Below the pieces are notes generated by a model, which had not been told where the DNA came from, ran no database searches, and saw only the letters and a list, made by a program, of their open reading frames with translations. A stretch of 64,000 bases of DNA from Eledone cirrhosa (Eukaryota), in contig OZ024744.1 of the NCBI GenBank assembly GCA_964016885.1, forward strand, positions 59,024,001 through 59,088,000. The letters run 5' to 3'. A program made the position numbers and the translations under genes. The number at the start of each line of letters is the position of its first letter. Position 1 is the stretch's first letter. This document shows positions 57,737 to 57,969 of this stretch, piece after piece.

Positions 57737-57850
57737 TAGGAACGAGTAGTACCCCGACGGCTGAGCTCAAGCCGTTTCGACGGCTAATTCTGTCCAGAAT
57801 TAGCCGTCGAAACGGCTTGAGCTCAGCCGTCGGGGTCCTACTCGTTCCTA
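57737..57850. repeat. Near-perfect palindrome (2-nt loop) whose hairpin is hammerhead stem II
   Basis: GACGGCTAATTCTG TC CAGAATTAGCCGTC-GAAAC-GGCT TGAGCTC AGCC-GTC-GGGG. Confidence 0.85.
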
Positions 57851-57927
57851 TTACCCACTCTACTACCCTAAGTATTGAGTACTTTGGTGCGTTATGGTCC
57901 ACCTGGTTCCTTACCACATTTCCTCCG

Positions 57928-57969
<42 letters not shown>

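Follow-up and report, generated by a model that had tools for sequence, protein, structure and literature searches.

Pseudo-LTRs (pLTRs) of Penelope-like elements (PLEs) occur with inverted, 5′-truncated copies and one-sided tails of 30–40 bp, in (TA)n targets (PMC8557442). An earlier study (PMC3846280, 2013) held that palindromes at inverted PLE junctions are best explained by self-priming. Its authors favour an antisense RNA as the template, and hammerhead ribozymes go unmentioned in the part cited here. Metazoan PLE hammerheads have a helix II of 7–8 bp, an extra base after A9, a U3–A8 variant of the core and a palindromic helix III, and pairs on opposite strands, 100–700 bp apart, have already been noted (PMC4209133). 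In the case of Poseidon PAc, a PLE of Anolis carolinensis, both target strands are nicked and extended, with internal initiation; the substrate in vitro is mainly uncleaved RNA, insertion is independent of cleavage, and the ORF begins at stem II (PMC11167929). Second-strand synthesis of PLEs and the origin of their inverted 5′ copies are called ‘still undefined' in PMC8557442, and the steps of the process are left unvalidated in PMC11167929; the parts of PMC6431247 and PMC6962438 that we consulted add nothing further on junctions. Among the literature titles surveyed, mainly of non-subscription papers, none connects hammerhead stem II with the inverted junctions of PLEs, and this detail may be unreported; it is equally undemonstrated at the locus described here. 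A related structure is the L1 twin-priming inversion, which has an inverted 5′ part, a microhomology joint and a 3′ segment that is not duplicated.

We analysed a stretch of 64,000 nucleotides from Eledone cirrhosa (the window), which is AT-rich and contains many (TA)n microsatellites and retroelement relics. The locus (57736–57928; Table 1) is one unit of 193 bp inserted within a (TA)n microsatellite, which borders both of its ends; a target duplication is unreadable within the (TA)n. In self-comparison its two arms align over 57 bp with no gaps and a sole mismatch (T at 57750 versus C at 57837), and the innermost 42 bp counted from the apex match perfectly. The RNA fold of the palindrome has a z of −18.7, and none of 200 shuffles folded equally well. 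On the minus strand the short arm holds another 3′ half of a hammerhead (GAAA at 57778), and it stops at one of only 3 out of 133 positions in the right arm that end in TAT or ATA. No homologue of the tail was found within the 64-kb window.

Table 1 Coordinates of the inverted unit, of its hammerhead 3′ half and of apices in comparable palindromes
Feature	Position	Strand	Remarks
Left (TA)n target microsatellite	57719–57738		Final bases shared with the end of the arm (TAT microhomology)
Inverted (short) arm	57736–57792	−	Reverse complement of 57795–57851, one mismatch at 57750
Putative stem II hairpin	57779–57808	+	Predicted fold of 13 bp, 4-nt loop
Apex loop TC	57793–57794		Only asymmetric bases at the junction
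Right (direct) arm	57795–57851	+	Carries the hammerhead 3′ half
Core G12-A13-A14-A15.1 (GAAA)	57809–57812	+
Stem III	57812–57830	+	57812–57817/57825–57830, 6 bp, 7-nt loop
GUC cleavage triplet	57829–57831	+	C17 = 57831
GGGG, presumed 3′ strand of stem I	57832–57835	+	Partner strand absent; role inferred from type I hammerhead geometry
One-sided tail, 77 nt	57852–57928	+	Right arm only
Right (TA)n target microsatellite	57929–57966		Flank beyond the tail
Comparable apex	19119		4 nt upstream of core; loop 1 nt; palindrome 18918–19320, stem II region 104 nt
Comparable apex	33868		7 nt upstream of core; loop 12 nt; palindrome 33756–33994, stem II region 49 nt
Comparable apex	36539		69 nt upstream of core; loop 0 nt; palindrome 36362–36717, stem II region 36 nt
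Comparable apex	58249		24 nt upstream of core; loop 8 nt
Comparable apex	59323		26 nt upstream of core; loop 8 nt

The unit is very probably the 3′ end of a PLE pLTR, comprising the 3′ half of the hammerhead and the sequence downstream of it, together with a head-to-head inverted copy, set in (TA)n. The assignment is made by anatomy and context, not by ORF linkage: the unit has the adjacent inverted 5′-truncated copy, the one-sided tail and the (TA)n target of EN+ PLEs, and no RT plus GIY-YIG ORF or homology was found within it. We regard it as a dead, 5′-truncated relic with no likely function, and the locus as a real, young PLE-type inverted junction that cuts through a hammerhead, a further example of a known structure.

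With PLE pLTRs the locus shares the head-to-head inverted copy, the junction palindrome, the one-armed tail, the AT-rich or (TA)n target and a hammerhead in the repeat (PMC8557442, PMC3846280); unlike the pLTRs described in PMC8557442, it has no ORF, measures only 193 bp, has a junction that splits the hammerhead and carries a tail of 77 instead of 30–40 nt. Type I (minimal) PLE hammerheads resemble it in the GAAA, the A15.1–U16.1 and C15.2–G16.2 pairs, C11.1, the NUH triplet and a palindromic stem III region. Its stem III, however, has 6 bp as against 0–2, its putative stem II 13 bp as against 7–8, and its 5′ core is missing along with the 5′ strand of stem I (PMC4209133). The likeness to PAc is one of mechanism: an AT-rich target, copying of an uncleaved ribozyme, internal initiation, which accounts for unequal 3′ ends, and possibly an ORF starting from stem II; second-strand synthesis was not reconstituted in that study (PMC11167929). 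Non-LTR retrozymes, too, are non-coding, hammerhead-bearing and PLE-related (bioRxiv 10.64898/2026.07.22.740005; see also PMC7229834), but they are head-to-tail tandems with whole ribozymes, whereas the locus comprises one head-to-head unit and only half a ribozyme. A direct repeat of the unit is absent from the window, and the main text of the retrozyme preprint, as far as consulted, makes no mention of palindromes or hairpins. Unlike in L1 twin-priming inversions, 57 nt are present twice (57736–57851).

The first-pass annotation of this DNA had described a 14-bp hairpin at the apex followed by GAAA, a 6-bp stem III, GUC and GGGG, with an inverted copy of the 3′ half in the place of CCCC-CUGANGA. 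All these elements were confirmed, and the replacement was borne out: no CUGANGA-type core is present 5′ of the hairpin on either strand, and the inverted arm occupies its place. By sequence, the hairpin (57779–57792/57795–57808) has 14 bp and a 2-nt loop and lies directly 5′ of GAAA. The 3′ strand of the putative stem II (57795–57808), including C11.1 at 57808, is certainly parental; its 5′ strand may be parental too, and the G at 57779 that closes the stem is possibly a product of the inversion. The locus thus has the GAAA core, a stem III closed by A15.1–U16.1 and an NUH triplet, and lacks the C3–A9 core (or its U3–A8 variant) and stem I; the CCCC at 57752–57755 is a mere mirror image of the GGGG and no partner for it. 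It is half a ribozyme and not a complete type I hammerhead and, judging from its sequence, should not cleave itself in cis, as it has neither the CUGANGA half nor the 5′ strand of stem I. Stem III is nearly self-complementary, with a predicted free energy of −30.7 kcal/mol for the self-dimer versus −7.1 for the single hairpin.

We estimated how often such a motif arises by chance. A strict descriptor (6-bp stem III, GAAA at most 40 nt from the apex), which was fitted to this case, was satisfied near the apex by none, and anywhere by 3, of 20,000 dinucleotide shuffles of the right arm and tail; a looser descriptor was satisfied by 368 of the 20,000. On both strands of the window the strict descriptor gave 11 matches, against 1.3 expected from shuffled unmasked sequence. 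Two of them are the locus itself and the other nine resemble unrelated hairpins or AT repeats, so that the strict 3′-half motif alone is no proof of a hammerhead. Rfam gave no match at gathering score in the window; of 37 weak matches around the site, none reached gathering score or belonged to a hammerhead family. The lack of a hammerhead match is expected, because only half a core is present. A pre-miRNA was ruled out, all Rfam hairpin matches being below gathering score, as was a protein-coding gene, with no Pfam match in the unit.

BLASTN of 57737–57930 against the window returned the locus itself and three noise matches at E = 5, which makes it a single copy in 64 kb. An exact pattern scan of bacterial and archaeal genomes gave no loci, and two loci from a further prokaryotic pattern scan were dismissed as chance, having only the 19-nt pattern in common and unrelated flanks. 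BLASTN against plasmids and phages gave no match. The antisense open frame matched none of the predicted proteins (candidates of 35–112 aa); the sense open frame had no match at E 0.001 among 1.84 billion protein representatives, and none of 48 candidates of 87–2000 aa scored. These negatives say little about a parent copy, since the DNA collections compared contain no animal genomes. Inside the window, the hammerhead candidate at 11153 was rejected as the parent, as it shares only the start of stem III and gives no BLAST match. The first-pass annotation had proposed to recognize the parent by CCCC-CTGAnGA upstream of the hairpin. Among 13 intact hammerheads in the window (chosen by descriptor and by eye, and hence candidates), the CUGANGA core occurs in only 6, the U3–A8 variant in 3 and other variants in 4; a search for CCCC-CTGAnGA alone may miss the parent, because 7 of the 13 carry other cores. 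The U3–A8 candidates are those at 11153 (+), 63667 (+) and 51465 (−). An intact endonuclease–RT ORF of 1024 codons (11329–14403) follows the candidate at 11153 at a distance of about 140 nt, with (TA)n in between.

A recognizable PLE is present elsewhere in the window. The ORF at 15995–16966 encodes an RT C-terminus and a GIY-YIG domain, and its closest named relative, at 60% identity (62 matches among 868 candidates), is LOC128251599 of Octopus bimaculoides; no DNA similarity was found between this PLE and the unit. The element is 5′-truncated (15828–17496) and has a hammerhead candidate at 17362 with a CCGAAGA core. Its inverted copy (15828–16010) begins 2 nt ahead of the core and exceeds the direct arm by 47 nt. 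If the excess (15828–15874) is element sequence, snap-back copying would be insufficient there and a second RNA-templated synthesis would be needed.

The 14-bp hairpin is not independent evidence that the apex was once the loop of the parent's stem II, because it is the inner part of a palindrome of 57 bp: a perfect ‘stem II' would arise from any inversion whose junction lay 5′ of GAAA, and the figure of 14 bp is set solely by the start of GAAA, with pairing continuing to 57 bp. Around TC, the parent's own pairing may have been anything between a microhomology of 2–3 bp and a full stem. An 8-mer at 57802 is repeated at 57825, so that the end of stem II equals the end of stem III; because of this recurrence, the 3′ strand of stem II can compete for the 5′ strand of stem III and bury GAAA. 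In the predicted fold without the left half of the hairpin GAAA is indeed buried, and with the full hairpin the fold is hammerhead-like. Constrained folding of the native sequence put the probability of the active fold at 0.35–0.42 with 5–7 basal pairs, 0.87 with 8 and at least 0.98 with 10–13. On this model, a monomer-active parent would have had a stem II of at least 8 bp, with little space for an off-centre loop. The argument presupposes a parent active as a monomer, and PLE hammerheads are often dimeric or protein-assisted. The recurring 8-mer could in itself act as a conformational switch, or it could be a remnant of template switching at an earlier time.

Long stem II helices do occur in the window: among the 13 intact candidates the stem II region spans 12–104 nt, and 3 of these regions contain helices of 12–15 bp, with an unbroken 13-bp helix beginning at position 10.1 in none of the 13. 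The plus-strand frame from 57781 is open through the end of the tail, which is weak and post hoc (2,523 of 20,000 shuffles do as well). An AUG within a core directly adjoining 57779 would share this frame, again a post hoc observation; if the core had the additional base usual in PLE hammerheads, the frame would stop at 57801. Taken across all routes considered below, the apex having been the loop of the parent's stem II is somewhat favoured in our judgement, and self-priming in some form has a little over half of our confidence.

The route to which we give the most weight, tentatively, is that a target-primed cDNA folded back on a long stem II. Its steps, all of which we infer, would be as follows. 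A PLE GIY-YIG/RT protein acting in trans would nick the (TA)n, and reverse transcription from about 57928 would copy an uncleaved RNA, passing the tail, then the cleavage site, stem III and GAAA, before entering stem II. The cDNA would fold back at its end, probably on the long stem II with 57793–57794 as the loop, and self-templated extension of up to 57 nt would overwrite the 5′ core. The new strand would then jump to the other target end via the 3-nt TAT microhomology, which would leave the 77-nt tail one-armed. Of this scheme, the geometry and the motif are observed, as are the microhomology and the PLE context; the number of cDNAs (one or two) and the order of events are beyond what a single copy can tell. 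The first-pass annotation had called the locus the clearest footprint of self-primed synthesis, with stem II as the snap-back hairpin. As a leading mechanism snap-back is reasonable, and folding favours a parent with a long stem II; it is only plausible that the apex was its loop, the hairpin being dependent on the palindrome, and ‘clearest footprint' is an overstatement, since two joined cDNAs or a palindromic master would yield the same DNA.

We compared the locus with other palindromes in the window. Out of 16 close inverted matches, 7 were counted as tight hammerhead-bearing palindromes; left out were 4 without a core beside the apex, 2 with long spacers (58465–59100 and 63576–63831) and those at 33547, 35964 and 48880, which were assessed by reading only. 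In 5 of the 7 the apex lies 5′ of an intact core (Table 1), and the loops of 0 and 1 nt found there mean that a tight apex needs no stem II. The apex falls between the core halves in the other 2: the locus and the palindrome 52373–52696, whose apex (52526/52543), inside the stem II region, leaves a 16-nt unpaired loop. A related non-palindromic copy at 14908 (minus strand; 14800–14950) has an intact core and no hairpin centred at the corresponding place; it is a relative and not the exact parent. This palindrome and this copy are the closest analogue of the locus in the window. Overall, the junctions cluster round the ribozyme and mostly not at stem II.

The insertions 58134–58288 and 59175–59485, which belong to one family, have the same apex and loop, with 7 of the 8 loop bases identical; this is compatible with repeated fold-back at one site and with inheritance of the junction. 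Both arms of 59175–59485 end at the same TAT, so that a TAT at a junction may also mark where priming took place. Further one-sided tails, of 83 nt at 36718 and 55 nt at 59105, accompany short arms that end TA-like. The anatomy recurs with different hammerhead families, the arm pairs being 73–99% identical by self-BLAST, and the spectra of mismatches between arms, too few to judge by, give no sign of one-directional editing. Within 58134–58371, the short arm switches after 31 nt into a different hammerhead element, another copy of which lies at 59851–59936 (minus strand). The region 58461–59159 (with 52027–52312) is a complex inverted unit whose spacer measures 285 nt; the final four bases of its one-sided tail (55 nt) before the (TA)n are those of the tail at the locus. 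Several tails terminate in C-rich motifs.

These comparisons also weigh against fold-back on a long stem II, as 5 of the 7 apices lie outside stem II and the inverted arm of the PLE at 15828–16010 is too long for it by 47 nt if the excess is element sequence. The longer arm speaks for a rival course, in which a dimeric PLE protein–RNA complex primed both nicked strands, with cDNAs starting from 57928 and from the TAT at 57851, whose ends annealed through the self-complementary stem II or were end-joined nearby; stem II would then be a joint and no primer. We consider this unlikely on balance, and still the most serious competitor. The anole PLE protein cuts and extends both strands and has been modelled as a dimer, and its internal initiation at two sites would account for a one-sided tail (PMC11167929); moreover, stem III (57812–57830) is predicted to self-dimerise, and the arms of 59175–59485 that end at the same TAT suit such a process. 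To obtain a 2-nt loop from two independently halting cDNAs, however, would require a pre-existing hairpin or luck. In vitro, the initiation sites are non-homologous to the target (PMC11167929), whereas the short arm here ends in microhomology, and among the literature titles none proposes this course for PLEs. A good deal less probable, in our view, is that the RT stalled within a longer stem II or its loop II and the cDNA snapped back on a mere 2–4 bases beside the TC, so that the hairpin was made by the event and had never been stem II. The wide range of stem II regions among the 13 candidates (12–104 nt), the tight apices outside stem II (19119/19121 and 36539/36540) and the apex 52526/52543, which lies in a stem II region without a symmetric hairpin, all speak for this. 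The requirement for at least 8 basal pairs speaks against it, as it leaves 6 bases plus TC for the loop, with the apex roughly centred.

It is also conceivable, but improbable, that the palindrome was inherited: the master would already have been inverted, a read-through RNA of both arms would have been copied, and the left end would be a 5′ truncation with microhomology. pLTRs with palindromes of 18 and 38 bp at their 5′ ends have been described (PMC3846280), and the apex and loop common to 58134–58288 and 59175–59485 agree with such a master. The RT, however, would have to traverse a 57-bp RNA duplex, and the origin of the junction is merely shifted back by one round. Cephalopods edit their RNA heavily from A to I; the sole mismatch between the arms is T:C, and not G:T or A:C as such editing would leave, a weak argument as it rests on one site. 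Least probable of all, and very unlikely, is an origin at the DNA level or a technical one, be it a template switch of replication at the hairpin after insertion, a fold-back artefact of the reads or the assembly, or an unrelated inverted repeat that contains a hammerhead-like motif by chance. The shuffles that satisfy the looser descriptor and the lack of an Rfam hammerhead match leave some room for it. The arms, however, are unequal, differ at one position and end at a microsatellite junction, and the same anatomy recurs across different hammerhead families.

A single junction such as this one cannot settle how the inverted copy formed. What is useful is the density of young, near-perfect hammerhead palindromes: apex position, loop and arm lengths over many copies would separate fold-back of one cDNA from priming on both strands. 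With 7 tight hammerhead palindromes per 64 kb here, octopod genomes should offer enough young junctions to map second-strand initiation genome-wide. We also raise, as a speculation with a low chance of being right, that the PLE hammerhead has a second role in replication, its self-complementary helices serving as the fold-back site of the first-strand cDNA or as the annealing site of two target-primed cDNAs made on a ribozyme-dimerised RNA pair. If so, the shape of the ribozyme, and not its cleavage, would complete integration, which would explain why hammerheads are retained when cleavage is dispensable for insertion in vitro.

Other repeats were noted in the window. A tandem repeat of about 82 nt occupies 1–1186, with at least 14 copies at about 94% identity; hammerhead scans gave no match there. 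A SINE-like family of about 180 nt has at least 10 copies, 75–94% identical (31910–32087, 41879–42067, 48840–49021, 56628–56798 and others). Two pairs of direct repeats, each about 480 nt long, lie at 40706–41193 and 49929–50416 (90% identity) and at 43669–44147 and 46448–46912 (93%). A retroviral-type RNase H fragment (45057–45599) lies between the members of the latter pair, suggesting nested LTR elements.
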